Shown: positions 1-63,064 of the stretch, piece after piece
Numbering within the stretch: position 1 is the first letter of the stretch
Layout: each line of letters opens with the position of its first letter
DNA from: Vicinamibacterales bacterium
GTDB lineage: Bacteria > Acidobacteriota > Vicinamibacteria > Vicinamibacterales > UBA8438
DNA: 64,000 nucleotides
Assembly: GCA_963663195.1 (NCBI GenBank)
Contig: OY760136.1
Coordinates: forward strand, 4,030,300 to 4,094,299
Direction of reading: 5' to 3'
The notes under the pieces: model-generated
Databases searched by the model: none
What the model was told of the DNA's origin: nothing
The model's input: only the letters and a program-made list of their open reading frames with translations
Made by a program: the position numbers and the translations under genes

Positions 1-457
1 CCCATGAGGTGAACCGCAACCCCGCGATGGCGCTGCCCGAACTCATCCGCGTGCTCTGCAACTGCTGCTCCACCGTCGTCGTCGGAGGCAGCCTGCCGTC
101 CTGCGGGTCGACGATCAGCGACGTGCGTTGGGAAAGCTCTCCCTGCTCGAGCCAGTAGTCGTTGTAGAAGCCGACCGGATCCCCGCTGGGACGGTCGTCG
201 CTGAGTCCCGCCGTCAGATTCCGCGCGGCTCGTTCCTCGTCCGTGAGCACTGCTTTTCCGGCCAGATCCGCCGGCCGTTCCAACGGTGTCGTGGAAGCGT
301 TGGACCAGGTGCCCTGCAGATCGGGGTGCCCCCAGGGTGTGACGGGCGGCGACCACGTACCGCGCGCCGCGTCAGGTTGTTGACCCGCTAGCGCCGGCGG
401 CGTCCAGAGCAGTAACGCAACGGCAACGAACAGGGTGGCGAATGCACGATGATTCAT
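1..457 (-). CDS. Family paralogue P0 (5' part only, runs off the window): exported TPWGDPDLQG/CHEGNY-family protein
   Basis: Absent from the ORF track because there is no stop in the window. Reverse-strand ATG at 455-457 is preceded by GGGGAGG. My translation is MNHRAFATLFVAVALLLWTPPALAGQQ..VTPWGHPDLQGTWSNASTTPLERPADLAGKAVLTDEE..FYNDYWLEQ..RTSLIVDPQDGRLPP, i.e. a signal peptide plus the first three family motifs. Confidence 0.8.
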   Translation of the reverse strand, partial: MNHRAFATLFVAVALLLWTPPALAGQQPDAARGTWSPPVTPWGHPDLQGTWSNASTTPLERPADLAGKAVLTDEERAARNLTAGLSDDRPSGDPVGFYNDYWLEQGELSQRTSLIVDPQDGRLPPTTTVEQQLQSTRMSSGSAIAGLRFTSW

Positions 458-539
458 GACGACCTCCCCACGGAATGCGCGGCGACGGGGTGATCCACGT
501 GCCGTGGAAAGGGTAACCCCTTACACGGCATCTTACCCA

Positions 540-2105
540 CTAGAATTCCAGTTGCCAGCGGCCGTACAGCTCGTAGAGCGCCGCCGGCGGGTCCACCGCC
601 GGGTGCGTCTTGAAGTAGTCCCCGGTCAGCAGCACCGATCCGCCGACTTCCAGCGCCAGCAGCGACGCCATCTGCCAGCGCGTTTCCGCCAGCAGCTCCG
701 TCCCGATGTCCGGCGATCCGCTCCGCGGGCTGGGCGCGTCCGATCGCAGCCAGCCGGCCGCCAGGTAGGCGGACCATGCCGCGGCCAGCGGCTGCTCGTA
801 GCCGGCCTGCAGCGTCAGCAGGCCGAGGCCGTTGTTCTGCAGTCCGATGCCCAGATCCGTACCGTCCGACGGCCCGCGCGGCGACGTCAGACCGAGGAGG
901 CTCCAATACGACTGCGCGCCCAGGTTGTCGCGCGCGCTCTGCGCGATCGTGCGGAACTCGCCGGAGCGTGTCGAATCGTCGCCGCTGTTGCCGGTCGAGT
1001 ACAGCACCCGCAGATGCGTGGTTCCGGCGCCGGTATCGAGCGCGGTAGCAACCTTCGCGGCCCAGCCGGAATGCGACCAGTTGTAGTCAGGCGTCTCGCC
1101 CCTGTTCATGATCAGAAACAACGAGGTCGACCCGCCGCCGTGCTGCAGATGGCCGCGCCCGCCGACCCACAGCGCGTCGCCGCGCTGGACGAACTCGCCG
1201 GGCGCGTGACCGTGCGGCGCGGCCGGACCGCCGAAAGCGCAGTACAGGTTGCCGGCCCGATCGCGCGCGTAGTAGACGCTCACACCCCAGATCGACGAGC
1301 CAATGGTCCGATCGAGATCGGCCGTCAGGAGCCAGTTGTCGCCGTCGCCGGCGCGGGAATCGCGCTGCAGGATCAGCGCGCCCAGCGCGTAGTGCCAGGT
1401 CTCGCGGACGGTCTGCTCGAACGTGATGCCGCCGACGTTGAAGTCCCAGACCGAGTTGGCCAGCGGCGCCTGGGTGGTGTCGTAACGGTCGACCGCCCAC
1501 AGCGGATCGCCGAAGGCCGGACGCTCGCCGAAGCGGTCCTCCCAGCCGAGCACGCCGGCGCGGACCAGCGAGTGCTCGGTCGGCTTGTACCAGAGGAATC
1601 CGCGCCGCATCTCGACGCCCGCCTGGTCGATGCCTCCGAGCCGGCCGGGCTCGACGCCGAACGTCTTCGGAAATTCGCGCCCGCTGCCCAGCTCGATGTG
1701 GCCGGCCTCCATCTGGACGTAGGCGCCGTAGCGGCACGTCTCGCGGTCATGAACATTGACCCAGCCCCGGAAACGCTGGTTCAGGAAATCCGAGCCAGGC
1801 GGTTCGCTGGCGACCGTCCGGTCGTGAAATCCGAAATTGGCCTGGTTGCCCGTCAGCCGAAGCTGCCCGCCGGCCGCGAATCCGACGGCGCCCAGCGCGA
1901 GCGCCGGCGCGCATCCGTCATCGTCCGCAACCGCCGCCTGCCCGCCCGTCCCAGCCGCCGCCGTTGGCGCGGCGCACGCCAGGATGATGCACGCCGCCGC
2001 CGCGCCCAGGTAGGTTCCTCCGCCCGAATGAGATCGCACGATGTTGCTCCAGGGAACTACGCGCCGCTCGACCGTCGCCGCCGCACGCGTGCGCGGCTTG
2101 CTCAT
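540..2105 (-). CDS. Outer-membrane beta-barrel (porin-like) protein
   Basis: This is the in-frame ATG (2103-2105) part of ORF 540..2891. The protein ends ..ALYELYGRWQLEF with a terminal Phe, typical of OM barrels. It has alternating amphipathic, Gly/Tyr/Trp-rich segments and sits 2 nt downstream of the ABC permease gene. Confidence 0.65.
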   Translation of the reverse strand: MSKPRTRAAATVERRVVPWSNIVRSHSGGGTYLGAAAACIILACAAPTAAAGTGGQAAVADDDGCAPALALGAVGFAAGGQLRLTGNQANFGFHDRTVASEPPGSDFLNQRFRGWVNVHDRETCRYGAYVQMEAGHIELGSGREFPKTFGVEPGRLGGIDQAGVEMRRGFLWYKPTEHSLVRAGVLGWEDRFGERPAFGDPLWAVDRYDTTQAPLANSVWDFNVGGITFEQTVRETWHYALGALILQRDSRAGDGDNWLLTADLDRTIGSSIWGVSVYYARDRAGNLYCAFGGPAAPHGHAPGEFVQRGDALWVGGRGHLQHGGGSTSLFLIMNRGETPDYNWSHSGWAAKVATALDTGAGTTHLRVLYSTGNSGDDSTRSGEFRTIAQSARDNLGAQSYWSLLGLTSPRGPSDGTDLGIGLQNNGLGLLTLQAGYEQPLAAAWSAYLAAGWLRSDAPSPRSGSPDIGTELLAETRWQMASLLALEVGGSVLLTGDYFKTHPAVDPPAALYELYGRWQLEF

Positions 2106-2107
2106 TA

Positions 2108-4143: not shown

Positions 4144-5249
4144 GCGCTGAAACGCTCGTTCATCTCGTCCGCGTGGTCGCTCCACCATTCCCAGTCGTTC
4201 GACAGCACGCGGGCGGCGTTCTCGGGATACAGCGGCATGTGCGGATTCATGTCGATGCCGACCTCGGCGTGGCGCCCGATGAGCGGCAAGCCGGAGCGGC
4301 GGGCGGGGCTGTAGGCGATGTAGTGGCCGACCGCCGCCATCGACTCGGCGGTGGTCGCGAAACGGACGAGCGCCAGGGCCGCTTCGAGGTCCGGCGTTCC
4401 GGCGACGATCGCCAGGGGGCCGACATCGAGGATCTGGCCGTCCCAGACGATGACGAACGGCTGGGCCTCCAGCGCCTGTGCATTGAAGATGCGGCCGTTG
4501 TAGGCGGTGCTCATCACCACCTCCCCGTCGGCCAGCATCTGCGGGGGCTGCGCGCCGGCCTCCCACCAGACGACCTCGTCCTTGATGGTGCCGAGCTTGC
4601 GGAAGGCCCGGTCGACGCCCTCGGGCGTGTCGAGGGCGGCGTACACCCGGTCGAGCGGCACGCCGTCGGCGATCAGCGCGAATTCCAGGTTGGCGTGCGG
4701 CACGCGGCGCATGCCGCGCCGGCCCGGAAAGCGCTCCAGGTCGAAGAAGTCAGCCATCGTCGCCGGCGGCTCACCGGTAATCCGTTCGGGGTTGTAGGCA
4801 TAGACCGTGGAATAGAAGGTGACGCCCACGGCGCATTCGAACAGCGACCCCGGCAGGAAGTCTTCGAGCGCCGGCGCGCCGTCCGCGCCAGACGGCAGCA
4901 TGGCGAGGTCGATCCGTTCCAGGATGCCCTCGTCGCAGCCGCTCACCGCGTCGGCCGTCTCGAGATCGACGATGTCCCAGTGGACGTTGCCGGTCTCGAC
5001 CTGCGCCCGTACCTGCGCAAGGCCGCCGTTGTAGTCCTCCAGGCGGATCTCGATGCCGGTCTGCTCGGCGAACGGCTCCAGGTAGCCCTTGTCGATGGCT
5101 TGCGCATAGGAGCCGCCCCAGGAAACCACCGTCAGTGACTCGCGGCGCGGCCCGCCGCACCCGGCCGACGGCGCGGCCAGCATCACGAGGATGGACAGCA
5201 ACCCCGCGGAAGCCGCCAGCGTCAGCGCGCGTCCCCGCCGGCCGTTCAA
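4128..5249 (-). CDS. ABC transporter periplasmic substrate-binding protein (PotD/PotF-like), probable lipoprotein
   Basis: A TTG start at 5249 overlaps the ATPase stop (TTGA). The signal is ..LLSILVMLAAPSAGC, and the mature part (SWGGSYAQAIDKGYLEPFAEQTGIEI..) is typical of solute-binding proteins. The start codon is uncertain. Confidence 0.75.
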   Translation of the reverse strand: MNGRRGRALTLAASAGLLSILVMLAAPSAGCGGPRRESLTVVSWGGSYAQAIDKGYLEPFAEQTGIEIRLEDYNGGLAQVRAQVETGNVHWDIVDLETADAVSGCDEGILERIDLAMLPSGADGAPALEDFLPGSLFECAVGVTFYSTVYAYNPERITGEPPATMADFFDLERFPGRRGMRRVPHANLEFALIADGVPLDRVYAALDTPEGVDRAFRKLGTIKDEVVWWEAGAQPPQMLADGEVVMSTAYNGRIFNAQALEAQPFVIVWDGQILDVGPLAIVAGTPDLEAALALVRFATTAESMAAVGHYIAYSPARRSGLPLIGRHAEVGIDMNPHMPLYPENAARVLSNDWEWWSDHADEMNERFSAWLAR

Positions 5250-6370
5250 CGTGCGACCCCCTGTTCGTCCGCATCCAGCACGCGGCAATCGGTCGGCGTC
5301 CAGCCGATGCGTATGCGGTCGCCCTCGATCACGGCGCCGTGGCCCACCACGTTCGGAATCTTGACGATGAACTCCGAGCTGCCGCACACGTTGACGCGCA
5401 GGCGGAGATGGTCGCCGAGGAACGTCATGTCCTCGATCCTGGCCTCGAACTCGTTGGTGTACAACCCGGGCGCGGGCGCGACGGCCACCCGTTCCGGACG
5501 AATCGACAGCGTCGTGGCGTCGCCCGGGCCGCACGGCGCGACACGCAGCGCACGGACGGTCTCGCCCCCGACGTCGACCTCGCAGATCTCGTCGGCAATG
5601 TTGATGACGCGCCCGGCCAGGCGGTTGTTCTCACCGATGAAGCGCGCAACAAAAGAGCGCGCCGGCTCCTCGTACAACCCCTCCGGCGATGCGATCTGCT
5701 CGATGCGCCCGGCCTGGAACACCGCCACGCGGTCCGACATCACCAGCGCCTCCTGCTGGTCGTGGGTCACGTACAGCACTGTGACCCCGAGGTCGCGGTG
5801 GATGCGCCGGATCTCGTACTGCAGCTCCTCGCGCAGGCGCCGGTCGAGCGCCCCCAGCGGCTCGTCCATCAGCACCAGCTCCGGCTCGAACACCAGCGCG
5901 CGGGCTATCGCCACCCGCTGCTGCTGGCCGCCCGAGAGCTGTCCCGGCCGGCGCTGCTCCAGCCCCTCGAGCCGCACGAGCTGCAGGACGCGCCGCACCT
6001 GCTCGCGGCGGCGCTCGGGCGCGATCCCGCGCACCTCCAGCGGAAACGCCAGGTTCTCGCCCACGGTCATGTGCGGAAAGAGCGCGTAGTTCTGGAACAC
6101 CATGCCGATGCCCCGCCGCCGCGGCGGCACCTGCTGCACGGCGCGCCCGCCGATGCGGATGACGCCCGCGGTCGGCGTCTCGAAACCGGCCAGCATCATC
6201 AGGCAGGTGGTCTTGCCGGAGCCGGACGGCCCGAGCAGGGTCAGAAACTCGCCCTTGCGGATCTGCAGGTCGAGGTCGCGCACCACCAGCGTCCGCCCGT
6301 CGAACGTCTTGCTGACCCGTTCGAACTCGACGTACGCGGCGTTTCCGGTCGATTGGCTGTTCTGGTCCAT
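5246..6370 (-). CDS. ABC transporter ATP-binding protein (PotA-like)
   Basis: Walker A GPSGSGKT, signature LSGGQQQR and Walker B LVLMDEPL are all present, followed by a C-terminal TOBE-like regulatory domain. Confidence 0.95.
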   Translation of the reverse strand: MDQNSQSTGNAAYVEFERVSKTFDGRTLVVRDLDLQIRKGEFLTLLGPSGSGKTTCLMMLAGFETPTAGVIRIGGRAVQQVPPRRRGIGMVFQNYALFPHMTVGENLAFPLEVRGIAPERRREQVRRVLQLVRLEGLEQRRPGQLSGGQQQRVAIARALVFEPELVLMDEPLGALDRRLREELQYEIRRIHRDLGVTVLYVTHDQQEALVMSDRVAVFQAGRIEQIASPEGLYEEPARSFVARFIGENNRLAGRVINIADEICEVDVGGETVRALRVAPCGPGDATTLSIRPERVAVAPAPGLYTNEFEARIEDMTFLGDHLRLRVNVCGSSEFIVKIPNVVGHGAVIEGDRIRIGWTPTDCRVLDADEQGVAR

Positions 6371-7753
6371 CTATGGGTTTCCGTTTGCCGCGGAGGGTTC
6401 CGCAAATGCCGTTTTCAGCAGCGGCGGCGTCACGAGCGTCGTCAGCATGACCATGGCGACGATCGCGGAAAAGGTATTGTCGCTCAACACGGGAGTGCCG
6501 GCGACCAGGACCGTATGGCCGATGCTGGCGAAGATCAACCCCACCTCGCCGCGCGGAATCATGCCGATCCCGATGGCCCAGCGATTGAGGCCCCGCTTGA
6601 AGACGCCCAGCACGCAGGCCTGCTTGCTCACGACAGCCGCGACGCTCAAGAGGCCGGCGAAGACCACTACGTCGAGCGAGGCGAAGGACGCCATGTCGAC
6701 GCGCAGCCCCATGTAAACGAAGAATACAGGGACGAATATCGTGCCGATCGGTGCGATGGCGGCGTCTATCCTGTACCGTTCCCGCTGCTCGCCGAAGAAC
6801 CTCGTGATTTCCTCGCTGAGCACCAGCCCCGCGGCGAAGGCCCCCACGATGTCCGCCAGACCGATATAGTCCGCAAGCGCCGCCATCAGGAAGCAGTAGG
6901 CGACGCCCAGCACGGCCGGGGCCGACGGCGATCGCGCGTGCCGGACGAGCCGCATCAGCGGCAGGATGACGACCCGGCCGAACAGCAACGATCCGGCGAG
7001 GAAGCCCACGGCCTGCCCCACGATCAGAACTACGGGGCCAACGGCAAGCTCGAGCGCGCCGCCGGTATCGGCCGCGCCCACCAACCCGAGAATGATTGCC
7101 AGCACGATCAGGCCGAGGATGTCGTCCACGACGGCCGCGCCGAGAATAACCTTGGACTCCGGCGCATCCATCCTGCCGATATCGCGCAGCACGCGCGCCG
7201 TGATCCCGACGCTGGTCGCAGCGAGCGTCGCCCCGACGAACAGGTGGACATACCATGCGACGTCCGCGGGGAGGAAAGCGGAAGAAACGGCGTAGCCCAG
7301 CGCCACCGGCGCGACGACCCCCATCAACGCCACGCCGACGGCCGAGGATCCGACCCTCAGCAGTTCCTTGAGGTTGCAGTCGAGACCGACCTGGAACAGC
7401 AGCAGAATCACGCCGATTTCGGCTGCGATCGGCAGGAACGGATCGCTCTTCAGCGCATCGAAAATATCGATGCCGAATACGCCCAGGTTGCCCAGGACGA
7501 CCCCGACAAGCAGCTCGCCCAGCACCGCGGGCTGGCCGAGCCGCTCGACCAGCTCACCGGCGACCTTGGCGGCGATGAGGATGGCGGCGAACGACACCAG
7601 GAATGGAGCCATGTCGCCGCCGTGCGGCCCCTCCTGGGCGCCGGCCAGGCGCCAGGCGCCGAAGACGATGGCGGGAACCAGAAAGCCGCAGCGGCGAAGC
7701 AATCCGCGGTACTGCCGCGTGCGGTGCGGAAGGGCGGACTGCGGGCTTGTCAT
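6371..7753 (-). CDS. Cation:proton antiporter (CPA2 / Na_H_Exchanger family)
   Basis: Polytopic membrane protein with ..ILIAAKVAGELVERLGQPAVLGELLVGVVLGN.. The stop abuts the ATPase start. An alternative start at 7612 (MAPFLVSF) is equally plausible. Confidence 0.85.
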   Translation of the reverse strand: MTSPQSALPHRTRQYRGLLRRCGFLVPAIVFGAWRLAGAQEGPHGGDMAPFLVSFAAILIAAKVAGELVERLGQPAVLGELLVGVVLGNLGVFGIDIFDALKSDPFLPIAAEIGVILLLFQVGLDCNLKELLRVGSSAVGVALMGVVAPVALGYAVSSAFLPADVAWYVHLFVGATLAATSVGITARVLRDIGRMDAPESKVILGAAVVDDILGLIVLAIILGLVGAADTGGALELAVGPVVLIVGQAVGFLAGSLLFGRVVILPLMRLVRHARSPSAPAVLGVAYCFLMAALADYIGLADIVGAFAAGLVLSEEITRFFGEQRERYRIDAAIAPIGTIFVPVFFVYMGLRVDMASFASLDVVVFAGLLSVAAVVSKQACVLGVFKRGLNRWAIGIGMIPRGEVGLIFASIGHTVLVAGTPVLSDNTFSAIVAMVMLTTLVTPPLLKTAFAEPSAANGNP

Positions 7754-7927
7754 GCGGGCTTCTTGCTGGCGCCCGATCATCGGCAGCCGCCGCGGGCGTG
7801 TCAAGGCGGATCTGCATGCGCCGTTGCACATGGAATTGATTCCGCGGCGCGCCATGGAGGCGCGCTTCGCGGCGCCAGGGAGGGTATGGTAAGAGCTACT
7901 GTCAAAGGCGCGACCGAGAGGTGTGAC

Positions 7928-10120: not shown

Positions 10121-10150
10121 TCGGACCGAGGAGAGGACCGGGAGGTGCGC

Positions 10151-15227: not shown

Positions 15228-16301
15228 CTAACGAACCTTCGCCGCGGCGGCCTCTGCCGCCATCCGCTCGAGGTTGCGATTGATCTCGAGGATGTGCCGG
15301 ATGTCGTGGTTGCCCTCGTGGCAGCCGTATTCGAACATCGGCCCCTCGGTCTTGATCATCGGCACCTCGGCGCTCCAGGAGCTGGTCCAGGTGGTCGGAT
15401 CGGAGATCGTGAACTCGTAGTGGATCTGGGTCTCGCCGACGCGGCTGAACCGTTCCACCACGTGCCGGAACCCGGAGGACCCGCGGTAGCTGCGCTTGTC
15501 GACGTCGACGAAGTTCTTCGATTCGACGACCAGGGTGTCGCCGTCCCAATAACCGCGCGAGGCGCCGCCGTACTGCGGCACACCCCCCGGGAGGTGCGGG
15601 CGTCCGTCGAGCGGAATGATTCGCGGCAGGGTAGTACCGAGCTCCGTGAACACGACGACGTAGTCCGAAGTCTGGAAAATCTGATGGATGTCGTTGTAAG
15701 ACGGCGGCAGGATCGGCGGCCCTTCGTGCCGCCACGCGATGCAGCGTTCGGGCAACGGGCGCGTCTCGTGGCTGTCGAATACGCTGCGCATGGCCTGTTC
15801 GTGGGCAATGCGGGCCGCGCCGGCCGGCGTCAGCGGCGGAATCCGGCCATTGGGCGGATCCGTGATCAGCGACGTGCGCCGGGTCGACAACCCCTTGGGC
15901 ACCTCAGTGCGGAGCCAGACCGTATTGTCGTAGTGCACGTACGACGGGTCGCGGTTGACCTGGTACAGGCCCCGCTCCCGCTCCTCCGCGTCCTCCAGGA
16001 TCGCGGCGTCGCGCGCCAGCGGATCGACCCCGTCGGCTGTGAGCTGCGCCTGCAGCTCCGCGAACTCCTCTTCCGAATAGAACGCCTTGTCTCCCAGGTA
16101 GGCGGGGCGTTCGATCGGCGTGAACGTCTGGGTGGTCCAGTACCCCTGGAGATCCGGATGACCGTCCGGCGTGCGCGGCAACGTCCAGTCCGCGGCCTCG
16201 TCCGCGGCGTGCTCGCCCACAGCCTGCGCGGCAGCCGACAAGGGCGCCGACAACCCGACCGCAACGATCGCCGCCAGTGCGGCGAGAGTAGAGCGGCTCA
16301 T
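15228..16301 (-). CDS. Family paralogue P3 (TPDGHPDLQGYW subtype), co-transcribed with a PQQ dehydrogenase
   Basis: GAGGAGGAG lies upstream of ATG 16301. After a signal peptide come PRTPDGHPDLQGYWTT, FTPIERP, RTSLITDPPNGRIPP, ERC, IIPLDGRPHLP, GYWDGDTLVVESKNF and FEYGCHEGNH. The stop is 2 nt from the start of the PQQ-DH gene. Confidence 0.9.
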   Translation of the reverse strand: MSRSTLAALAAIVAVGLSAPLSAAAQAVGEHAADEAADWTLPRTPDGHPDLQGYWTTQTFTPIERPAYLGDKAFYSEEEFAELQAQLTADGVDPLARDAAILEDAEERERGLYQVNRDPSYVHYDNTVWLRTEVPKGLSTRRTSLITDPPNGRIPPLTPAGAARIAHEQAMRSVFDSHETRPLPERCIAWRHEGPPILPPSYNDIHQIFQTSDYVVVFTELGTTLPRIIPLDGRPHLPGGVPQYGGASRGYWDGDTLVVESKNFVDVDKRSYRGSSGFRHVVERFSRVGETQIHYEFTISDPTTWTSSWSAEVPMIKTEGPMFEYGCHEGNHDIRHILEINRNLERMAAEAAAAKVR

Positions 16302-32143: not shown

Positions 32144-32172
32144 TACGGCGCACGCCCCCGCCACACCTTTCC

Positions 32173-43961: not shown

Positions 43962-45041
43962 TCAGACTTTCGGCGTGACCGCCAGGAAGCGGCGCGGGTT
44001 GTCGACGAGGATCTTGCGGACCGTGCGCTCGGGCACGCCGGCAAATAGCAGCTTCGGCACGAACTGCACGAGCACCGTCGAGAAACCGTTGCCGTAGTTG
44101 GCCTTCGAGTGGGTGCGGTTGCCCATGTCCGAGGAGAACACGATATGGTCCTCGAACCCGGCATCGAGCAGATCGAGCACCATCCGGACCTTTTCCGTCT
44201 CCGGGATCTGCGAGCGGCTCATCTCGTGGCCGACGGTGTCGAGGCCCACGAACGCGCCGCGGCGCGCGATGGCCGAGTGCGTGCCGATCGGGTCGTGCTC
44301 CTGCTTGATCGTCGACATGTGGCCGATCACCAGGTGGGCGAAGTCGACCCCGACCGACTCGAAGTTGTCCATCTGCTCCGTGGCGCAGCTCGGACAGCTC
44401 TCATGCGGCGTGTGGGTGAAGATCGGCAGCCCGGTGGCGACGTGGGCCCGGCCGATGGCGCGGTGGACCTTGCGCTCGTCAGGCCGCATCTGGAGCGACG
44501 AGCCGATCTCGCCGAACGCTCCCCAGCGCCGCTCGGCCGCATCCTGCACGAACTGCTCGTACAACGCGTCCTCGCTCATCTCGACCACCGGCACGGGATA
44601 GAACCTGAACCCGGTGTCCTGGAGATAGCCGCCGGCGCAAACGATGCGGACGTCCGCGCGGTCGGCCACGGCCTGCAGGTTGTCGAGCGCCTGCTGCGTG
44701 CGCCGCGCGCCCGCCGAATCGACCAGACAGGCCACGCCGTCGGCCCCGGCGGAGTCGACCTCGAAGAGCACTTCGTCCGGCTCGCCGCGCAGGTGCTCGT
44801 GGATCAGCGTCGCCCCGTTGGCGAGTTGTTGCGGATCCACGTCTCCCTGCAACGTGCGGATGACGGCCCCGCTCGGAAAGTCGGGCGCATCGGCGCTGGT
44901 GAACCGTATCGACTGCTGCGCGCCGGCGGCGACGCGGCCGCCGGCCGTCAGTCCCAAACCTGCCGTGGCGCCCAGCAGTCCAAGCGCCTCGCGCCGCGTG
45001 AGCCGCGCGTGCGGAGATTGTCGTCGCATGGTCATGGTCAA
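43962..45041 (-). CDS. Phosphotriesterase-family (amidohydrolase) protein with twin-arginine signal
   Basis: The sequence LTRREALGLLGATAGLGLTA is Tat-like. Motifs ..TLIHEHL.., ..FGEIGSS.., ..IFTHT.., ..VIGHM.. and ..FSSDMG.. match the PTE metal-ligand pattern. Confidence 0.8.
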   Translation of the reverse strand: MTMTMRRQSPHARLTRREALGLLGATAGLGLTAGGRVAAGAQQSIRFTSADAPDFPSGAVIRTLQGDVDPQQLANGATLIHEHLRGEPDEVLFEVDSAGADGVACLVDSAGARRTQQALDNLQAVADRADVRIVCAGGYLQDTGFRFYPVPVVEMSEDALYEQFVQDAAERRWGAFGEIGSSLQMRPDERKVHRAIGRAHVATGLPIFTHTPHESCPSCATEQMDNFESVGVDFAHLVIGHMSTIKQEHDPIGTHSAIARRGAFVGLDTVGHEMSRSQIPETEKVRMVLDLLDAGFEDHIVFSSDMGNRTHSKANYGNGFSTVLVQFVPKLLFAGVPERTVRKILVDNPRRFLAVTPKV

Positions 45042-46277: not shown

Positions 46278-46318
46278 TGGGTTTCTCCTTGTCATGGCTG
46301 TGGGTGAGCGCCGCACCA

Positions 46319-47137
46319 CTAGCTGCCCGGCTTCGCCAGGTGACCCCACATCGTCTCTTCCACGAACTCCACGCAGTTGAACTCCAGAATCTCGACGTCC
46401 GGCTCAAGGCGGCGGTAGAGCGGCATGCTGATCGTCCAGGGCCCCGTGAACACGTTCTCGTCCTCGAGCGTCGCCTCGTACTGCAGCGCGTCGGGGCTGA
46501 TGGGCGTGATCCGCTCGACGACCCTGAGTGCGGCACTGTGGTAGTTGCCCGCCCGGTCGAGCCAGGTCTGGTCGGTGAACGTATTCGACTCGATGACCAG
46601 CGTGTCGCCTTCCCAACGGCCGAGCGAGTGCCCCATGTACGTATCGATCGGCGGCGGCTCGACCGCCGTCATGTGGATCGAGCGCGTCGCCCCGATGTAC
46701 TCGGATGCGATCAGGATGAATTCGGGGGTCTGCACGATCTGGAACGGGAACGGCATGTACATGACGCGCGGGACACCCGGCAGGTAGCACTTGATCTCGG
46801 GATCCGCCGTGAGCCACTGCTCCTGGTTCTCCCGCCGCTTCTCGAGCGCCGACTCCTGGTACGGAATGTCGCCGCCCTGGACCACGGACTTGCCCGCCGG
46901 CACCGCACCGACGGCTCCGAGCGGGATCGCCGCGCCGGCCCGAGCGGAATGATCCTCCAGGTCCCAGTGCGCCGTGTTGTTGGCCTGCCAGATGCCGTTC
47001 AGGTCCGGTGCGCCGTCGAGGGTGCGCGGCAACTGCGCCTGATCGCCGCCGGCATCGTCTCCGCCCGCGCACCCGAGCGTGCCGGAAAGAGCGACGGCGG
47101 CCAGCAGGACTACCGGGGTTCCGATCAGCTTTCGCAT
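46319..47137 (-). CDS. Family paralogue P6: divergent, shorter lipoprotein subtype lacking CHEGNY
   Basis: ATG 47137 gives [23 protein letters not shown], which contains a lipobox. The motifs [31 protein letters not shown] and [29 protein letters not shown] are present, but the C-terminus is ..[12 protein letters not shown].. instead of ACHEGNY. Confidence 0.8.
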
Positions 47138-49500: not shown

Positions 49501-50478
49501 ATGCTCGGACCCTACGTCCACCGCATCGATCCCGTCCTGTTCGACGCCGGCGGGGTCCATTTCTGGTGGTACGGGCTGGGCTTTGCGCTGGGCCTGCTGG
49601 AGCTGCACCTCTTCGCGAGCCGCGACCGGCGCCGGCTGCACCTGTCGCGCCGGGAAGTCTGGAGCCTGAGCCTCTTCATCGGCATCGGCATCCTCGCGGG
49701 CGGGCGGGCCGTCGAGATCGCGTTCGACGAATGGCCGTTCTACCGCGAGCACCTGCGGCTGATTCCCGCGTTCTGGCTCGGCGGCATGGCGACCCACGGC
49801 CTGTTGCTCGGCGGTCTCGCCGGCGCGGCCGCATTTGCGATCCGCTACCGCAAGCCGCTGCTGCCGCTGGCCGACGCCCTGGTCATTCCGGCCGCGTTCC
49901 TGCTCGGCATGGGACGGATCGGCAACTTCATCGACGGGCAGATCGTCGGCGCAGCGACGGACGTCTGGTGGGGCGTGAAGTTCCCGGACGCGGAGGGATT
50001 CCGCCATCCCGTCGTGTTGTACGACGGCGCCAAGAACCTGCTGCTCATGGCGTATCTCCTGCATGTGCGGCGGACGAGCACGACACCCGGCGCCGTCGCG
50101 GCCCGCTTCGTCTTCTGGTACGCCTTCCCGCGCTTCTTCATCGACCTGTTCCGGGACTACCCCACGCACCGGCTCGCACTGGGCACGGGGCAGACCCTCA
50201 ACATCGTGATGGCGATGGTCGGCGCCGCGCTGCTCTACCGCTCGCGCCTGCGCAGGTTGGGACGCCTGCGGCATGGCGGAGTCCGCGTCCCGCCGCCCGG
50301 CGTACCCCGCGACGCGCCGCCCCTGGCCGCGCAACGGCTGGCGTTTGCCGTCCTGCTGGCATGCTGCCTGACGATTCCGAGCAACTGGACGCAGGACATC
50401 CCGGCGCGCTACGGGGACCGGCATGCCGGCCTGGAACACTCCTGGTTGTATCCGGAAATCGATACGGCGCCGCCCTAG
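49501..50478 (+). CDS. lgt: Prolipoprotein diacylglyceryl transferase
   Basis: Motifs ..FWWYGLGFALG.., ..GRIGNFIDGQIVG.. and ..RHPVVLYDGAKN.. are present, with a C-terminal extension. Confidence 0.85.
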   Translation: MLGPYVHRIDPVLFDAGGVHFWWYGLGFALGLLELHLFASRDRRRLHLSRREVWSLSLFIGIGILAGGRAVEIAFDEWPFYREHLRLIPAFWLGGMATHGLLLGGLAGAAAFAIRYRKPLLPLADALVIPAAFLLGMGRIGNFIDGQIVGAATDVWWGVKFPDAEGFRHPVVLYDGAKNLLLMAYLLHVRRTSTTPGAVAARFVFWYAFPRFFIDLFRDYPTHRLALGTGQTLNIVMAMVGAALLYRSRLRRLGRLRHGGVRVPPPGVPRDAPPLAAQRLAFAVLLACCLTIPSNWTQDIPARYGDRHAGLEHSWLYPEIDTAPP

Positions 50479-51452
50479 CGGGAACGTTCCTTGTTGCGGG
50501 CGCCGCGCAGCATGTTCTCCATCGAGTAGTTGCCCTCGTGACAGGCGTACTCGTAGATCGGCCCCTCCATGGCGGTCATCGGAATGACCGCGGTCCACGG
50601 GGCGGCGAACGTCGCCGGGTCGGTCACCGTGAAGCGGTAGTCGAGCGTGTCGGCGTCGATGCGCCGGAACCGTTCGACGAGCCGCATCGTGCGGCTGGCG
50701 CCGAAGACGGTGTTGGACACCCGCCGCTCGTACACCTTGTCGGTGAAGTTGGCGGTCTCCACCACCAGCGTGTCGTCTTCCCAGCGCGCCCGCGAATCGC
50801 CCATCCACTGGCGGATGGATGCGTCCAGATGCGGGCGTCCGTCGAGCGGGATGACGCGGGCGTCGTGGATCATCTCGGCGTAGATCACGACGTAGTCCGG
50901 CGTCTGCAGGATCTGGTAGTTGTGGTTGTAGAAGCCCGGCATCATGGACGCGGGCAGGCCGCGCGTGATGCAGCGTTCGAACACGCTCGGCTCGTCCCAG
51001 TGCGTGGGATAGGACGGCGAGGCGCGGGCCGCAACCAGATCGTCCGCACGTTTCTGCGCGGCGGGCGTCACCGTAGGTAACCGGCCGTCCGGCGGATCGA
51101 TGATCAACGACGTCTGCAGGGTGCGCGTGCCCTGCTCCAGCCAGAAGCTGTTGTAGGAGCCGGTGCTGGTGGGCGGCGGGGCCGTCTGCAGCACGACCAG
51201 CTCCGTGGCGCAGGCGCGCTGCTCGGTAAGCGCGCGTTGCGCGTCCAGCTCGGCCCGCTCTTCCTCGGTGAAGCTGCCGCGCGACGCCAGCTCGGCCGGC
51301 CGCTGCAGCGGCGTCGTCGTCGCGTTCGTCCAGGCGCCCTGCAGATCCGGATCGCCCCAAGGTGTCACGTGCGATTGCGCGCCAGCCGGCGCGGCCGGCC
51401 ATGCCACCAGTCCGAGCGCGAGCATCGCCGCGGCAAAACGCCCACTGCCCAT
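50475..51452 (-). CDS. Family paralogue P7
   Basis: GGAGG lies 5 nt upstream of ATG 51452 (MGSGRFAAAMLALGLVAWPAAPAGA). Motifs are HVTPWGDPDLQGAWTN, TPLQRP, SLIIDPPDGRLP, FERC, IHDARVIPLDGRPHL, ARWEDDTLVVETANF and YEYACHEGNYSM. Confidence 0.9.
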   Translation of the reverse strand: MGSGRFAAAMLALGLVAWPAAPAGAQSHVTPWGDPDLQGAWTNATTTPLQRPAELASRGSFTEEERAELDAQRALTEQRACATELVVLQTAPPPTSTGSYNSFWLEQGTRTLQTSLIIDPPDGRLPTVTPAAQKRADDLVAARASPSYPTHWDEPSVFERCITRGLPASMMPGFYNHNYQILQTPDYVVIYAEMIHDARVIPLDGRPHLDASIRQWMGDSRARWEDDTLVVETANFTDKVYERRVSNTVFGASRTMRLVERFRRIDADTLDYRFTVTDPATFAAPWTAVIPMTAMEGPIYEYACHEGNYSMENMLRGARNKERSR

Positions 51453-55414: not shown

Positions 55415-55420
55415 CAACCC

Positions 55421-55445
55421 GGGGGTTCGGGGCGCAGCCCCATCC
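55421..55445. repeat. Solo copy of the repeat core hairpin (inverted orientation)
   Basis: GGGGGTTCGGGGCGCAGCCCCATCC is the reverse complement of GGATGGGGCTGCGCCCCGAACCCCC. It lies between the aldolase stop and the next start codon. Confidence 0.7.
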
Positions 55446-55449
55446 AGGA

Positions 55450-55845: not shown

Positions 55846-55892
55846 TAGCGACGTTTCTCGTGATACAAGTCAGGCGATTTCAGGAGGCATTG

Positions 55893-56834
55893 ATGAATTC
55901 GAGAGTGATTGTTGCATCATTCGCGCTGGTGGGCCTCGTGCTGCTGCTACCCGCAACGTCCCTGAGTCAGACGCCCCGCACCGCCTGGGGAGACCCCAAC
56001 CTGCAGGGAACCTGGACGAACACCACCACGACGCCGCTCGAGCGGCCTGACGACCTCGCGGACAGGGAGGTGCTGACGGACGAGGAGTGGGCGGCGCGCA
56101 ATGCCGTCTCGGGCCTGAGCGACGACCGCCCCTTCGACACCGTCGGCTTCTACAACGACTACTGGCTGGAGCAGGGGCAGCTTCACGAGCGGACGTCGCT
56201 GATCGTCGATCCGCCGAGCGGCAAGCTGCCGCCGCGCACGCCGGAGGGTGAACAGCGTGTCGCCGCCCGGCGCCAGTACCGCGCCGAGAACCCGCCCGGC
56301 AATCCCGGCGTCTGGACCGATCTCAACGTCTATGACCGCTGCCTGACGCGGGCCATGCCGGGCACCATGATGCCGGGCTTCTACAACCACAACTACCACA
56401 TCCTGCAGACGCCCGACCACGTGGCGATCGTCGTGGAGATGATCCACGACACGCGCATCATTCCGCTCGACGGGCGCGGGCCGCTGGACTCCTCCATCCA
56501 GCAGTGGCTGGGCAATTCGCGGGGACGCTGGGAAGGCGACACGCTGGTCGTCGAGACAACGAACCTGAACGATCACGAGGACTGGGGCGCGACGGTCTAC
56601 GCGACCGGCAGCAATCTGCGGCTGGTGGAGCGCTTCGCGCGGGTAGACGAGAACACCATCGACTACCAGTTCACCGTGCACGACGACAGCACGTTCACCC
56701 AACCCTGGACGGCGTCGCTGCCGATGACGGCCCTCGACGGCAACCTGTACGAGTACGCCTGCCACGAAGGCAACTACGCAATCGCGAACATGCTGCGCGG
56801 CGCCCGCGCCAAGGATGCCGCCGAGGCCCCGTAG
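55893..56834 (+). CDS. Family paralogue P8
   Basis: AGGAGG lies 6 nt upstream of ATG 55893 (MNSRVIVASFALVGLVLLLPATSLS). Motifs are [70 protein letters not shown] and YEYACHEGNYAI. Confidence 0.9.
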   Translation: MNSRVIVASFALVGLVLLLPATSLSQTPRTAWGDPNLQGTWTNTTTTPLERPDDLADREVLTDEEWAARNAVSGLSDDRPFDTVGFYNDYWLEQGQLHERTSLIVDPPSGKLPPRTPEGEQRVAARRQYRAENPPGNPGVWTDLNVYDRCLTRAMPGTMMPGFYNHNYHILQTPDHVAIVVEMIHDTRIIPLDGRGPLDSSIQQWLGNSRGRWEGDTLVVETTNLNDHEDWGATVYATGSNLRLVERFARVDENTIDYQFTVHDDSTFTQPWTASLPMTALDGNLYEYACHEGNYAIANMLRGARAKDAAEAP

Positions 56835-56861
56835 CTGCGCACGGCGCGGCTCGGATCATGT

Positions 56862-57398
56862 TCAGTCCACCACGTAGCTGAACAGCTTGAATTCGCCGCC
56901 CCGTTCGAGAATCGAACCGAACAGCCGCACCTGCTCCTCTGCCCCGTCCTCGCCGCGGATGAGCAAGCGGCTGTCCCGGTGCACGGTATACGTCTCGTAG
57001 GTGGTTGATTCGCCGTCGAACTCGACGGCCAGCAGGTGGTAGCGCCTCCCGGCCTCCCTGGCGATCAGCCGGCGCAGCGCGTTGTTGCTCTTCTGGTGCA
57101 GGTCGCCCCAGGCGTATTCGAACGGCAGGCCCCGCTCGGGCCGGCTGGACGGCAATTCCGGCCAGACGACGGTGCGGAACTCGGTCTCGCTCAGTGCGAG
57201 CGCCTCCAGCCGTTCGACGTCGTTGGCAGCCAGCGCGTCGAGCACGGCTGCGGCTACCGCCTCCGGCGAGTCGAACGTCCACCGGAGCGGGGACTGGTCC
57301 GCAGCCCGCGGCGGAGAGCCGCAGGCGCCCCCTAAGACCAGGCACGCGACGGCGGCCGCTATGGCGACCGCCCGCCGCGCAATCCGTGATCCAGCCAT
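56862..57398 (-). CDS. Hypothetical lipoprotein (178 aa)
   Basis: ATG 57398 overlaps the upstream stop (ATGA). The N-terminus MAGSRIARRAVAIAAAVACLVLGGAC contains a lipobox. No domain recognised. Confidence 0.65.
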   Translation of the reverse strand: MAGSRIARRAVAIAAAVACLVLGGACGSPPRAADQSPLRWTFDSPEAVAAAVLDALAANDVERLEALALSETEFRTVVWPELPSSRPERGLPFEYAWGDLHQKSNNALRRLIAREAGRRYHLLAVEFDGESTTYETYTVHRDSRLLIRGEDGAEEQVRLFGSILERGGEFKLFSYVVD

Positions 57399-58801
57399 CA
57401 GTTCACGGCAAAGTCGGTCCAACCCGTCCACCAGGTATCGTGCCCGGAGCCGGCCGGCCCGACCGCGCCGATGAAGGTAGCGGAGGTATCAAAGAAGCCG
57501 TCGTCCGGCGGCGTCGCCGCCGTTACCGCGCCGGAAATGGCGGGCGACCCGGCGGCCGGGCTTATGTTCGGATTCCCGAGGTTGAACGGATCGACCAGCA
57601 GCGGGTCCATCGACGTCGTCACGTTGGTCCGGCCGGGGATCCAGTCCTTCAGGACGATGCCGTTCGCGTCGTCATCGCTGTCCGGGCGGAACTCGCCGTC
57701 GCAGCCGCTCACGACGCAGTTGCCGTAAACGATGCCACTCTCGATGGTCAGCGGCGTGTCGGTGCTCGAGTCCGTGATCTGCCGGTACGTCTCGCCGTGG
57801 TCGATGTCGATGGACGCCTCCTTGAAGCCGTGCACGATGAAGTTGCGCAGCGTCACGGAGGTGCCTTCGCGCAGCAGGATGCCGGTATCGCTCTCGCTGC
57901 CCGCGTCGGTGTCGGGGTCGCCGAGCAGCGTGAGGTTGTAGAGCGTCGGGTTCGAGCGCGGCGTCAGCGTGCGGTTGTCGCCGTTGTTGTCCGCCTCGAT
58001 GCCCTGGTCGGCGTCGTCGCCGCTCTGCAGCGCAATCATGAACTGCCCCTTGCCCTGCCAGCCGTCCGTCCAGTCGAAGCTGTCGTCGGCAATCCCGTAG
58101 CAGATGACGTGCTTCACCTCGACTGTCCCGCCGAAGAACTCCATCCCGTCGTCCTTGTTGAACGAGACCTGGACGTACTCCACCTCGGTTTCGCGGCCCA
58201 CGCCCTGGAACGCGATGCCGTTCAGCTCGTTGTCGGGACTGAACTCGGTGCCGGCGAACTCGACCCGCGTATAGCGCAGGTGGCCGCTGTCGTCGTCCGG
58301 ATCGCTGCCGCCGTATACGCCCGTATCGCCTTCACCCACGGACGTCCCGCCCGGCACGTTGAGCGGCGCGTAGCCGTTGATGATCAGGCCGCCCCAGTCG
58401 GCGCGGGCCCGCTCGCCAACCGGCTGGTCGCTGCTGAACACCACCGGCGCCGCCGCCGTGCCGTTCGAGTGAATCTGGGCGCCCTGGGTAATGATCAGGG
58501 TGCCGTTGGTGGCGAACTCGCCGAACACTTCCGTGCCCGCATCAAGCGTCAGCGTGGCGCCCGATTCGACAAAAACCGCACCCCGCAACACGTAGTAGCT
58601 GTCGGAGTCGAACGTCATGTCGCTGGTGATGCGACCGCTGACCACGCAGATTTCCTTGTCGAATCCGTCTCTGGTGCGGCAGCTGACCGGCGACTGCGAC
58701 GAAACCGCGCCGCCAGTCCACACGATGGCCCCCACGGCGAGCACGACGGGCACGGCGGCGCGCTGCGCCGACCGGTATAGCGTCATCTTCCAGTTCTTCA
58801 C
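57398..58801 (-). CDS. Exported repeat protein, probably right-handed beta-helix-like; TonB-receptor-associated
   Basis: GTG 58801 follows AAGGAAAGGA. After a signal peptide there are repeated short motifs (WGGLIINGYA, DNELNGIAFQGVG, DDGMEFFGGT, DDSFDWTDGW, DQGIEADNN). The protein ends ..WWTGWTDFAVN. The fold call is an inference. Confidence 0.65.
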   Translation of the reverse strand: MKNWKMTLYRSAQRAAVPVVLAVGAIVWTGGAVSSQSPVSCRTRDGFDKEICVVSGRITSDMTFDSDSYYVLRGAVFVESGATLTLDAGTEVFGEFATNGTLIITQGAQIHSNGTAAAPVVFSSDQPVGERARADWGGLIINGYAPLNVPGGTSVGEGDTGVYGGSDPDDDSGHLRYTRVEFAGTEFSPDNELNGIAFQGVGRETEVEYVQVSFNKDDGMEFFGGTVEVKHVICYGIADDSFDWTDGWQGKGQFMIALQSGDDADQGIEADNNGDNRTLTPRSNPTLYNLTLLGDPDTDAGSESDTGILLREGTSVTLRNFIVHGFKEASIDIDHGETYRQITDSSTDTPLTIESGIVYGNCVVSGCDGEFRPDSDDDANGIVLKDWIPGRTNVTTSMDPLLVDPFNLGNPNISPAAGSPAISGAVTAATPPDDGFFDTSATFIGAVGPAGSGHDTWWTGWTDFAVN

Positions 58802-58828
58802 GAATGCCTGTCCTTTCCTTGCTTACTT

Positions 58829-58950
58829 GGGGCTGCGCCCCAAACCCCCGCCGGCCACTCGCGGGGGCCCCTGCGCCCCACTCCGTGGCCGGCGGGCCGC
58901 GCTGTGCGCGGCCTGGGGACGGACGCCTCCATGTCGCCGTCCCCTCGCTG
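58829..58950. repeat. Stand-alone copy (D) of the structured central repeat module
   Basis: GGGGCTGCGCCCCAAACCCCCGCCGGCCAC..GTGGCCGGCGGGCCGCGCTGTGCGCGGCC.. aligns with the central module of copies A and C. It lies between the receptor stop (58982) and the next gene start (58801) and has no CCCGCATTTCTCACC ends. Confidence 0.75.
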
Positions 58951-58981
58951 ATTCAAACGTTGTTGCTTTTTCACATTGCGC

Positions 58982-61738: not shown

Positions 61739-61990
61739 GCTCTCGTTCCTTCCCTTCCGAACGCCCGCTACAGTACGGCGCGGAGGCGCCGCGGCCAGGC
61801 CGTCGTTAACCATTCCGAAGATAGCCAGCGTGTGTATCCGGTCCATGAATAGCCGGTTAATTTCGAATGACGGAGGGGTTAAATGCGCGTTAGTTACGTT
61901 TCGGCGGGGTAACGTGCGGCGCGTGCGGAGGCGGCGGCGGGGCGGGTTGGCGGGTGGTGTTATAGTGCATGTCTATCCCGGGGGTATGGC

Positions 61991-63064
61991 ATGCGACATG
62001 GATTACCGGCTGCTCGCGGCGTGTTGTTGACCCTGCTGATATTGCTGCTTGCGGCGCTGCCCGCGGCGGCCCAGGGCGGCGGAGCCGATGACGACGCGGC
62101 GGCGCGGACTCCCTGGGGCGACCCCGATCTGGAGGGGATCTGGAGCAGCAAGACCACGACTCCCCTCGAGCGCCCGGACGCGTACGAGGGCCGCGAGTTT
62201 CTTACGCAAGAGGAGATCGCGGATCTGGAGACGAACGCCCAGCGCGCGTCGGAGACCGGGTCCGGTGCCACCCTGCTGCCGGAACGCGCCGAGCGGGGCA
62301 CCGCGGTCGACGTGGCGGGCGCCTACAACTCGGTTTTCAGCTCGCGCGGGACAACGGTGGTGAGGACCGGGCGGACTTCGCTGGTAATTGACCCGCCGGA
62401 CGGCAAGATCCCGTATTCCGCGGAGGGGCTGGAGAAATTGGCCGCCGAGATGGAGTACCGGAAGGCGCTGATGACCGCCGATCTACAGGACCACGTGTCG
62501 ATGGCCGAAGGGCCGGAGGATCGTCCGAACGACCGCTGCCTGGGATTCACGCTGCCGTGCACCAGCATGTACTGCGCATACAGCCGGATCGTGCAGACCC
62601 CGGGCACCGTCACCATCTACTATGAGGCCGGCCACACCGGCGGCGCCTACCGCACCATACCACTGGACGGGCGGCCGCACGTGCCGCCGCATATCCGCCT
62701 GTGGTACGGCGACTCCGTCGGGCATTGGGAGGGTGACACGCTCGTGGTCGACACCACGAACTTCACCGACCGCCGCAGCGTCGAGGGAACTTCCACGCCG
62801 CCCGGTTTTCGCGGCCAGGGCGAGACGCTGCACCTGATCGAGCGTTTCACGCGCGTGGCGCCCGACATGATCCAGTACCGCGCCACGATCGAGAACCCGG
62901 CAATGTACTCGAGCCCGTGGACGATTGAGATGCCCTGGATGCAGGCCGCGGCGACCCAGGCCCAGATATTCGAGTCGGCCTGCCACGAGGGCAACTACGG
63001 CCTGACCGGCATACTCTCCGGCGCGCGGGCGATGGAACGGGACGGCCTGGCAGGTTCGAAGTAG
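61991..63064 (+). CDS. Family paralogue P9
   Basis: After a signal peptide (MRHGLPAARGVLLTLLILLLAALPAAAQ) come ARTPWGDPDLEGIWSS, TPLERP, RTSLVIDPPDGKIP, DRC, IPLDGRPHVP, GHWEGDTLVVDTTNF and FESACHEGNYGL. Confidence 0.9.
   Translation: MRHGLPAARGVLLTLLILLLAALPAAAQGGGADDDAAARTPWGDPDLEGIWSSKTTTPLERPDAYEGREFLTQEEIADLETNAQRASETGSGATLLPERAERGTAVDVAGAYNSVFSSRGTTVVRTGRTSLVIDPPDGKIPYSAEGLEKLAAEMEYRKALMTADLQDHVSMAEGPEDRPNDRCLGFTLPCTSMYCAYSRIVQTPGTVTIYYEAGHTGGAYRTIPLDGRPHVPPHIRLWYGDSVGHWEGDTLVVDTTNFTDRRSVEGTSTPPGFRGQGETLHLIERFTRVAPDMIQYRATIENPAMYSSPWTIEMPWMQAAATQAQIFESACHEGNYGLTGILSGARAMERDGLAGSK

Follow-up and report, generated by a model that had tools for sequence, protein, structure and literature searches.

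A very large, unnamed family of exported proteins with ten copies in 64 kb of a Vicinamibacterales genome: predicted calycin-like fold and a possible role as periplasmic binding or docking module

A stretch of 64,000 nucleotides from a Vicinamibacterales bacterium (Acidobacteriota; assembly GCA_963663195.1, contig OY760136.1, positions 4,030,300 to 4,094,299 of the forward strand), which we call the window, encodes ten copies of an exported protein that an initial annotation, made from the letters alone, could not assign to any named domain. We found that these proteins belong to an undescribed, very large and ecologically widespread family. The reading that we favour, at a probability of about 0.45 and hence somewhat short of even odds, is that the family is a promiscuous, non-catalytic periplasmic module for binding or docking, calycin-like in fold, which would tether, couple or feed the enzymes of TonB-dependent scavenging loci.

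Family membership, predicted fold and conserved residues

A profile hidden Markov model (HMM) of the family was run against the six-frame translation of the window (G+C 66–70%) and matched exactly ten open reading frames (ORFs), C1 to C10 in Table 1. With E-values between 1e-52 and 1e-158 the ten-copy observation is far beyond chance, and all ten ORFs translate to the proteins proposed initially, each with the same collinear series of motifs. Pairwise identity among the copies is 27–55%, only C4 and C5 being closer to each other (69%). C8, C9 and C10 have orthologues of 88–92% identity in the Vicinamibacterales metagenome-assembled genome (MAG) L001 and C7 has orthologues of 90% in other genomes; judged by these identities the paralogues are old and individually conserved, in line with the old and strongly diverged expansion that had been assumed. 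Every complete copy carries a signal peptide, and Sec-type ones are readable by eye in nine copies. The lipobox-like TLGC of C7 is imperfect and not kept in the consensus of its orthologues.

In order to determine the size of the family we scanned 1.84 billion representatives with HMMER and obtained 27,810 proteins at E ≤ 1e-3 (each standing for a cluster at 50% identity) and 15,528 at E ≤ 1e-10. In a collection of 5.8 billion proteins each of two queries retrieved at least about 8000 clusters at 90% identity; the clusters from both queries are all without Pfam domains and, where they carry a name, it is 'hypothetical protein'. The matches listed in species-representative genomes comprise more than 587 loci, most of them in Vicinamibacterales, Bryobacterales and other Acidobacteriota, and the other hosts among these listed matches are Gammaproteobacteria (OM182, UBA7449, Ca. 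Rariloculaceae), Phenylobacterium and a Bordetella-labelled MAG. The family thus also occurs in Alphaproteobacteria besides Acidobacteriota and Gammaproteobacteria, and cultured strains of Croceibacterium and Novosphingobium carry short-type members (see below) on megaplasmids (tblastn; hmmsearch E = 8e-27 and 6e-31).

No named family accounts for these proteins. Scans of all copies against Pfam-A (2025 copy) and NCBIfam (release 20) gave no match to the family domain above the curated cut-offs and, over 63 family members, nothing consistent even at E ≤ 10. PDB searches by sequence and by profile with two alignments returned only noise, and in the library searched there was no paper on such a family and none with its motif strings.

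The fold was predicted with AlphaFold2 for C9 (from 63 aligned sequences) and for C7 (from 109 sequences covering both subtypes). The mean predicted local distance difference test (pLDDT) was 75.8 for C9 and 77.4 for C7 and the predicted template modelling score (pTM) 0.75 and 0.76, with the barrel blocks mostly above a pLDDT of 90 and the signal peptide and lid low. Both models show the same order of elements, namely a short strand at QGxW, a long helix-bearing insertion, 8–9 consecutive β-strands and a C-terminal helix. The insertion between first strand and barrel, which we call the lid, is modelled as several helices joined by low-confidence loops. Foldseek searches of both models against the PDB gave CRABP/CRBP/FABP as top matches, followed by streptavidin, SAHS and nitrophorins, all of which are calycins, at E-values of 2.7e-4 to 1e-2 and target-normalised template modelling (TM) scores of 0.43–0.56; the alignments of C7 extend over about 205 columns and bridge first strand, insertion and barrel. 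The family is therefore predicted to form a lidded, calycin/FABP-like antiparallel β-barrel of weak resemblance to the known ones. The GxW of the PDLQGxW motif fits this prediction: 395/398 sequences have G39, position 41 is W in 367/399 and otherwise Y or F, and residues 39–42 are a predicted strand. It is from the predicted structures and this GxW motif that calycin membership is read: hhalign of the family profile with the Lipocalin_5 domains of fusion relatives gave a probability of 0.2% and thus no link at the sequence level, and Pfam holds no lipocalin or FABP match for the family.

Calycins are barrels of 8–10 strands with low sequence similarity to each other which often bind hydrophobic ligands (PMC4933562). 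With FABP, CRABP and CRBP the family would share the up-and-down antiparallel topology of a barrel with about ten strands, the GxW in the first strand and an insertion between the first and second strands, where FABPs carry their helical lid. In contrast to these cytosolic proteins, to which it has no sequence or profile similarity, the family is exported, bacterial, two to three times larger and used as a fusion module. It has 71–134 residues in the place of the FABP-type helix-turn-helix, which was not found, and moreover an invariant putative disulfide, an extra C-terminal helix and a large set of invariant polar residues. The family seems to represent a known superfamily in a new form of its fold, which is enlarged and exported.

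For the conservation counts the window copies were combined with 390 database proteins and 139 ORFs of other genomes, giving 539 family sequences, which span subtypes at 25–30% identity; C9, the reference of the first model, also gives the numbering. The invariant polar set consists of Q172 (525/533), E182 (517/533), R188 (528/533), E246 (528/529), R247 (515/530), Y258 (504/530), T261 (520/530), D264 (517/529), E287 (516/525) and E292 (507/514). Similarly conserved are G207 (533/533), W213 (523/532) and the consecutive T217, L218 and V219 (519, 527 and 522 of 532). The lid is the most variable region with a mean identity of 33%, compared to 56% in the N-terminal motif, 42% in the barrel and 52% in the C-terminal segment.

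The initial annotation had pointed to the nearly invariant Cys of ERC, the Cys and His of CHEGN and the His of IHD and RPH as a possible metal or redox site. The two Cys are indeed invariant, C150 in the lid (527/528) and C290 before the C-terminal helix (524/525), but the His all vary: H291 of CHEGN is found in 374/524 sequences, with Val in 128 that make up the whole short subtype, H185 of IHD in 341/530, with Gly in 116, and H197 of RPH in 264/389. Since the protein is exported, its two Cys are invariant and exactly two Cys are present in 411/539 domains, a single structural disulfide between lid and C-terminal segment is likely. We therefore rejected the Cys/His site. The CxxCH heme motif is absent from every window copy, and no heme or copper motif was found in the family.

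Fusions, tandem pairs and gene neighbours

Of the findings that go beyond the initial annotation, the fusions of the domain tell us most. Fusions to many exported domains, with the family domain at either terminus, were confirmed by hmmsearch, and the partners are cytochrome c, GSDH, CMD, SGNH/GDSL hydrolases, YtcJ-type amidohydrolases, M28 peptidases, NHL/SGL propellers, VOC/glyoxalase, S9/esterase, Lipocalin_5, PEBP, leucine-rich repeats (LRR) and ankyrin repeats (Ank). A first set of fusions looked heterogeneous, as artefacts might, and this explanation was dropped when a larger set showed several architectures recurring across many independent clusters. Every fused version keeps the full invariant residue set. 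Among the recurrent architectures is a protein of 507 aa, present in many independent clusters, which has no domain besides cytochrome c and the family domain. On three contigs (L089–L091, 6620–12188) it belongs to a tight operon in which a sulfite-oxidase-like molybdoenzyme is followed by the translationally coupled fusion, the start of which overlaps, a small cytochrome c and a pyrroloquinoline quinone (PQQ) dehydrogenase.

The window itself holds one fusion, as C2 is an unbroken ORF of 730 codons with the family domain followed by two CMD-like repeats; the CMD match (PF02627) in its C-terminal half is the only curated-family match among the ten copies in Pfam-A and NCBIfam. This architecture recurs in other lineages, in P0449 (735 aa, 99% coverage) and, with one CMD, in P0409, P0417 and P0418. 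The GSDH domain, encoded directly downstream of C2, is found fused to the family domain in P0395. The start of C2 does not conflict with the Na/H exchanger on the opposite strand, because the Pfam match of the exchanger begins only at residue 218 of its 615-aa ORF. A longer open frame of 1661 codons (5135–10120, +) is a high-GC artefact in its part upstream of 7928, which runs antisense to the real genes of an ABC ATPase (5246–6370, −) and of the exchanger (6371 to about 7650, −).

Fusion partners and operon neighbours match in kind, which by Rosetta-stone logic suggests that the stand-alone copies act together with the adjacent enzymes. The wide range of partners points to an accessory module, and not to one specific for quinoproteins.

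Gene neighbourhoods (±6 kb) were analysed for 80 loci from other genomes, chosen as those most similar to C9, so that all frequencies among them are biased and indicative only. Two to six family copies lie within this distance in 34/80 loci, a PQQ dehydrogenase homologue in 28/80, the DUF6152 family in 19/80 and a TonB-dependent-receptor-like ORF in 14/80. Smaller recurrent sets of neighbours include cytochrome c proteins, NHL-repeat propellers (9/80), DUF5916 (7/80), metallo-β-lactamases, amidohydrolases and, in 7/80 loci, pairs of a Planctomycete-type PSD protein (DUF1587/1592/1595/1588/1585, with cytochrome c) and a DUF1552 protein (HXXSHH), for example at L073 250–3939 and L082 13804–17694. 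In Proteobacteria some copies are located next to amidohydrolases, a β-lactamase-type esterase or a PQQ dehydrogenase and others among housekeeping genes. The PQQ dehydrogenase is directly adjacent in about 14 cases, in both orders and both orientations. Thus the linkage to PQQ dehydrogenases and TonB-dependent receptors that had been proposed does recur, but a fixed operon of PQQ dehydrogenase and family gene was rejected, as order and orientation vary and adjacency is restricted to a minority of the loci.

The family also forms arrangements with itself. Members of a short subtype of about 273 aa, exemplified by C7, lack most of the lid and have CVE replacing CHEGN, and 14 of the 28 short copies in the 80 loci stand directly upstream of a long copy on the same strand. 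The gap is 42 nt between C7 and C6 and 43 nt in the orthologous pair of 273 aa and 403 aa in L082–L084, and the tandem occurs in Acidobacteriota as well as in one gammaproteobacterial MAG. In addition, the single polypeptides P0402, P0404 and P0411 contain two complete family domains each. Taken together, the tandems and the double-domain proteins suggest that the domain probably works in pairs.

DUF6152 (PF19649) directly adjoins a family gene in each of its 19 loci. It does so in cultured Sphingomonadales too, with a TonB-dependent receptor alongside. The typical module is short–long–DUF6152, with a TonB-dependent receptor ahead of it in L059 and L079 and a PQQ dehydrogenase after it in L053. 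No DUF6152 gene is present in the window, and the C7–C6 pair is followed by a phosphotriesterase-family gene in the place where other loci have DUF6152. Like the family itself, DUF6152 is a small exported protein to which no function is assigned, and it is the recurrent neighbour of family genes, but it is a separate and already named family. Its mature N-terminus reads A-H-H-(S/A)-x-x-M-F-D and is followed by a W-x-N-P-H motif, so that the N-terminal His could possibly provide a metal site. PDB searches gave only noise for DUF6152 and a literature search no paper.

The binding or docking module weighed against other readings

The ten genes are old paralogues of Sec-exported proteins of about 270–400 aa. 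In the model that we propose the PDLxGxW segment would form the first strand, a variable lid of 70–135 residues would replace the FABP helix-turn-helix, 8–9 further strands would carry other motifs including YxFT, and a helix would follow C(H/V)E at the C-terminus. A disulfide between the Cys of the lid (ERC) and the Cys before the C-terminal helix would staple the lid to the barrel. The invariant polar set would bind one common ligand or partner, with diversity supplied by the variable lid and by the neighbouring or fused catalytic domain. The domain is combined in three ways: in cis, as a fusion with the partner at one end or the other; in trans, through operons with exported hydrolases, PQQ, GSDH and Mo dehydrogenases, c-type cytochromes, DUF6152 proteins and TonB-dependent receptors; and with the family itself, as tandem genes or double domains. 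The likely task of the module would be to tether, couple or feed catabolic enzymes of the periplasm where nutrients are scavenged. Carbohydrate-binding modules and docking domains of the dockerin/cohesin type are precedents for a single conserved module that is joined at either end to a range of unrelated catalytic domains and that is also seen alone or in tandem. The analogy is one of function and not homology: those have another fold, and the partners seen here are not limited to carbohydrate-active enzymes and include cytochromes c.

We prefer this model because partners that span several hydrolase superfamilies, three kinds of dehydrogenases, electron carriers and interaction repeats make it unlikely that the domain catalyses a pathway-specific step, and because mere shuttling of substrates leaves unexplained why a cytochrome c should carry the family domain as its sole additional domain. 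That the polar set is kept whatever the partner suggests a common ligand or partner surface, and clues to the site of specificity or assembly come from the variable lid and from the occurrence in pairs. Several points weigh against it. The resemblance of the predicted models to calycins is weak, at TM scores of about 0.5 and E-values of about 1e-3 to 1e-4, and finds no support in sequence profiles. As many as eleven invariant positions with polar or charged side chains, within a barrel of about 150 residues, are more typical of an active site than of a binding module, and fusions of enzymes with enzymes are also common. Furthermore, most members are stand-alone, including proteobacterial copies among housekeeping genes which have no obvious partner, and the linkage frequencies come from loci picked for their similarity to C9, without a genome-wide background.

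The same polar residues are an argument for an enzyme, either cofactor-free or with a metal, in which the invariant Glu, Arg, Tyr, Asp, Thr and Gln would be the active site, the paralogues would perform the same chemistry on different substrates and the fusions would be ordinary two-enzyme fusions of consecutive steps. About eleven such residues are invariant over the 539 sequences and retained in every fusion, stand-alone copies dominate, some of them alone among housekeeping genes, and enzymes with a calycin fold do exist, such as lipocalin-type prostaglandin D synthase, violaxanthin de-epoxidase and allene oxide cyclase. Nevertheless we regard this as unlikely, though worth serious attention, since no single reaction fits partners as different as hydrolases of four superfamilies, three kinds of dehydrogenases, cytochrome c, LRR and Ank. 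The 507-aa cytochrome c fusion would moreover need a redox-active family domain and no redox cofactor motif is conserved, nor did the Pfam, NCBIfam and PDB searches reveal similarity to a known enzyme family. Of the two options in the initial annotation, a periplasmic enzyme or an accessory family, the fusion range thus favours the latter, the enzyme keeping a lesser share of the probability.

A further family of readings starts from the fold. Paralogue-specific carriers resembling FABPs or lipocalins could each bind a different small, perhaps poorly soluble substrate delivered by a TonB-dependent receptor and hand it over to the adjacent enzyme or to an inner-membrane transporter. This would suit the predicted calycin/FABP-like barrel, the lid that varies in sequence and length, the old paralogues kept as orthologues across genomes and the arrangements with a TonB-dependent receptor ahead of the family gene (C4 in the window; L059, L079), and calycins commonly bind their hydrophobic ligands inside the barrel (PMC4933562). 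We consider it improbable, as a polar set so strongly invariant speaks for a single ligand common to all members and not for many, the shuttling of substrates hardly accounts for the fusions to cytochrome c, LRR and Ank, and a TonB-dependent receptor is nearby in only the 14 loci mentioned. Exported bacterial β-barrel binding proteins are otherwise familiar from the envelope (Blc, YxeF and the periplasmic metalloprotease inhibitors), and VtrA/VtrC, a heterodimeric bile-salt receptor, shows that a periplasmic calycin-type barrel can be an obligate two-protein unit for binding a small molecule (PMC4933562), which is conceptually like the short and long pairs. These proteins differ from the family in being small, single-purpose, neither massively paralogous nor fused to enzymes, with no homology detected, and pairing in the family is deduced from gene order and double-domain proteins alone. 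Starting from the pairs, the family domains might also bind one another, as short–long heterodimers or tandem doubles, and so build, in the periplasm of Gram-negative bacteria, a scaffold in the manner of cohesin and dockerin, on which hydrolases, dehydrogenases and cytochromes c would be assembled beside TonB-dependent receptors, with DUF6152 as a further subunit. We regard this as a long shot; a new catalytic barrel, cofactor-free or based on a cross-link, is likewise conceivable.

Metal binding has been mentioned above in its Cys/His version, which the variable His and the disulfide-like Cys pair effectively exclude as far as conservation can tell. What is left is a carboxylate-rich site for a hard metal (Ca, Mn, Fe or a lanthanide) in a periplasmic metallochaperone, for which E182, E246, D264, E287, E292, Q172, T261 and Y258 would all offer oxygen donors. 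Many of the partners are metalloenzymes (amidohydrolase, M28, phosphotriesterase, VOC, GSDH, PQQ dehydrogenases), the linkage to TonB-dependent receptors and to DUF6152 with its A-H-H-S/A terminus would fit, and ZinT/YodA is a precedent for a periplasmic calycin-like protein that binds metal. However, a chaperone for one metal would hardly be expected to have ten or more copies within 64 kb or to be fused with non-metalloproteins (SGNH, CMD, cytochrome c, LRR), and no known metal-binding motif or family was matched in Pfam or NCBIfam, which renders this reading quite doubtful. Least probable by far is a role dedicated to PQQ dehydrogenases, as their accessory protein or electron-transfer partner. 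It would explain the 28 loci with such an enzyme within 6 kb, the roughly 14 adjacent ones, the five quinoproteins of the window and the operons that combine the cytochrome c fusion with a PQQ dehydrogenase, but not the lack of fixed order and orientation, the approximately 65% of loci without a PQQ dehydrogenase nearby, the many hydrolases among fusions and neighbours or the missing heme and copper motifs.

Its roughly 28,000 clusters at 50% identity place the family among the larger ones that are without name, structure or function. It is abundant in Acidobacteriota, which are poorly understood although dominant in soil, sediment and sponges, it is found in marine Gammaproteobacteria and cultured Sphingomonadales too, and it is tied by fusions and operons to the periplasmic enzymes and TonB-dependent receptors used for scavenging organic matter. 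The present data constrain its function, and a new mechanism is not yet demonstrated. If the ligand of the putative conserved pocket were known, it would explain a recurrent design of catabolic islands and annotate tens of thousands of 'hypothetical proteins' together with the linked DUF6152 family. As homologues occur in culturable Novosphingobium and Croceibacterium the question is open to experiment, with cultured hosts, conserved modules and natural fusions as handles.

Features of the window and of comparison loci

Table 1. Family copies and neighbouring genes of the window, and family arrangements in other genomes.
Feature	Position	Strand	Evidence or remark
C1, family copy, N-terminal 152 aa only, cut by window edge	1..457	-	translation; HMM E=2e-55, profile positions 1-143
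C2, family domain (~aa 1-345) and two CMD-like (PF02627) repeats, 730 aa	7928..10120	+	translation, Pfam, HMM
GSDH (PF07995), directly downstream of C2	10145..11368	+	
C3, long-type, atypical ~100-aa N-terminal extension before hydrophobic segment	12248..13513	+	translation, HMM
PQQ dehydrogenase (PF01011), directly downstream of C4	13537..15200	-	start approximate, stop-to-stop ORF overlaps C4
C4, long-type, between TonB-dependent-receptor-like gene (upstream) and PQQ dehydrogenase (downstream), same strand	15228..16301	-	
TonB-dependent-receptor-like outer-membrane barrel (CarboxypepD_reg and OMP_b-brl_4), directly upstream of C4	16517..19651	-	
C5, long-type, flanked by esterase-like gene and DUF6941; 69% identical to C4	21452..22513	-	
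Phosphotriesterase-family hydrolase, directly downstream of C7-C6 pair	43962..45041	-	
C6, long-type, 402 aa, downstream partner of C7	45069..46277	-	translation, HMM
C7, short-type, 272 aa, most of lid missing, CVE in place of CHEGN, 42 nt upstream of C6	46319..47137	-	
C8, long-type, downstream of DinB-family gene	50475..51452	-	88% orthologue in L001
C9, long-type, 313 aa	55893..56834	+	translation, HMM, AlphaFold model
TonB-dependent receptor (Plug and barrel), divergent from C10	58982..61846	-	
C10, long-type, divergent from TonB-dependent receptor gene	61991..63064	+	translation, HMM
Short-long tandem, window	45069-47137	-	
Short-long tandem, L082	10001-12077		
Short-long tandems, L020, L026, L039, L053, L059, L062, L069, L079			
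Sphingomonadales locus with DUF6152, L085	5919-7555		Croceibacterium atlanticum plasmid NZ_CP011453.2
Sphingomonadales locus with DUF6152, L086	6617-7905		

The five quinoproteins counted initially are indeed present in the window and comprise four PF01011 PQQ dehydrogenases and one GSDH. They are accompanied by two c-type cytochromes, three TonB-dependent-receptor-like genes and a set of hydrolases (α/β hydrolases, an esterase, a phosphotriesterase-family protein, an EEP phosphoesterase and a cyclase-family hydrolase). The statement that the neighbours are almost all periplasmic oxidoreductases, TonB-dependent receptors and exported hydrolases is largely right but overstated, as an ABC transporter, the Na/H exchanger, BCCT, malate synthase G, Lgt and DinB are encoded as well, all outside periplasmic catabolism. 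C2–GSDH–EEP–C3, TonB-dependent receptor–C4–PQQ dehydrogenase and C7–C6–phosphotriesterase form apparent operons. A simple pattern search for the lanthanide-type D-x-D signature in the PQQ dehydrogenases of the window gave nothing usable.

Two of the copies show peculiarities of their own. The start of C3 is an ATG at 12248 preceded by GAAGGAGG, a strong Shine-Dalgarno sequence, and the following approximately 100 residues (window 12248–12560, +) are rich in Arg, Pro and Ala, include SRRFDV and stand ahead of the hydrophobic signal-like segment; they could be a signal anchor, a Tat-like leader or the result of a mis-start. An exact-sequence look-up of C9 in public assemblies gave no match. Compared with the related genome L001, a cassette of about 1.05 kb that comprises the C9 gene and its ribosome-binding site is inverted (window ~55860–56860 versus L001 5800–6950), the gene body aligning forward and both flanks reverse, with the flanks otherwise collinear. 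No long inverted repeats were found at the junctions of the cassette.

The island also encodes a DUF6941 protein directly downstream of C5 (20993–21415, −) and two DUF5916 proteins (32023–34539, + and 52139–54475, +), one of them with a weak CBM9-like match. An exported protein of 471 aa (26616–28031, +), which has one N-terminal CxxCH and a His-rich C-terminal part and for which Pfam gives only a weak cytochrome c match, has homologues in 7–10 of the 80 loci; its His motifs may resemble those of copper monooxygenases of the PHM/DBH type. Sizeable ORFs without a Pfam match are located at 56862–58801 (−), 540–2891 (−) and 37894–38973 (+), and two ORFs of 467 aa and 189 aa downstream of the TonB-dependent receptor that is divergent from C10 are conserved together with this receptor in L001.

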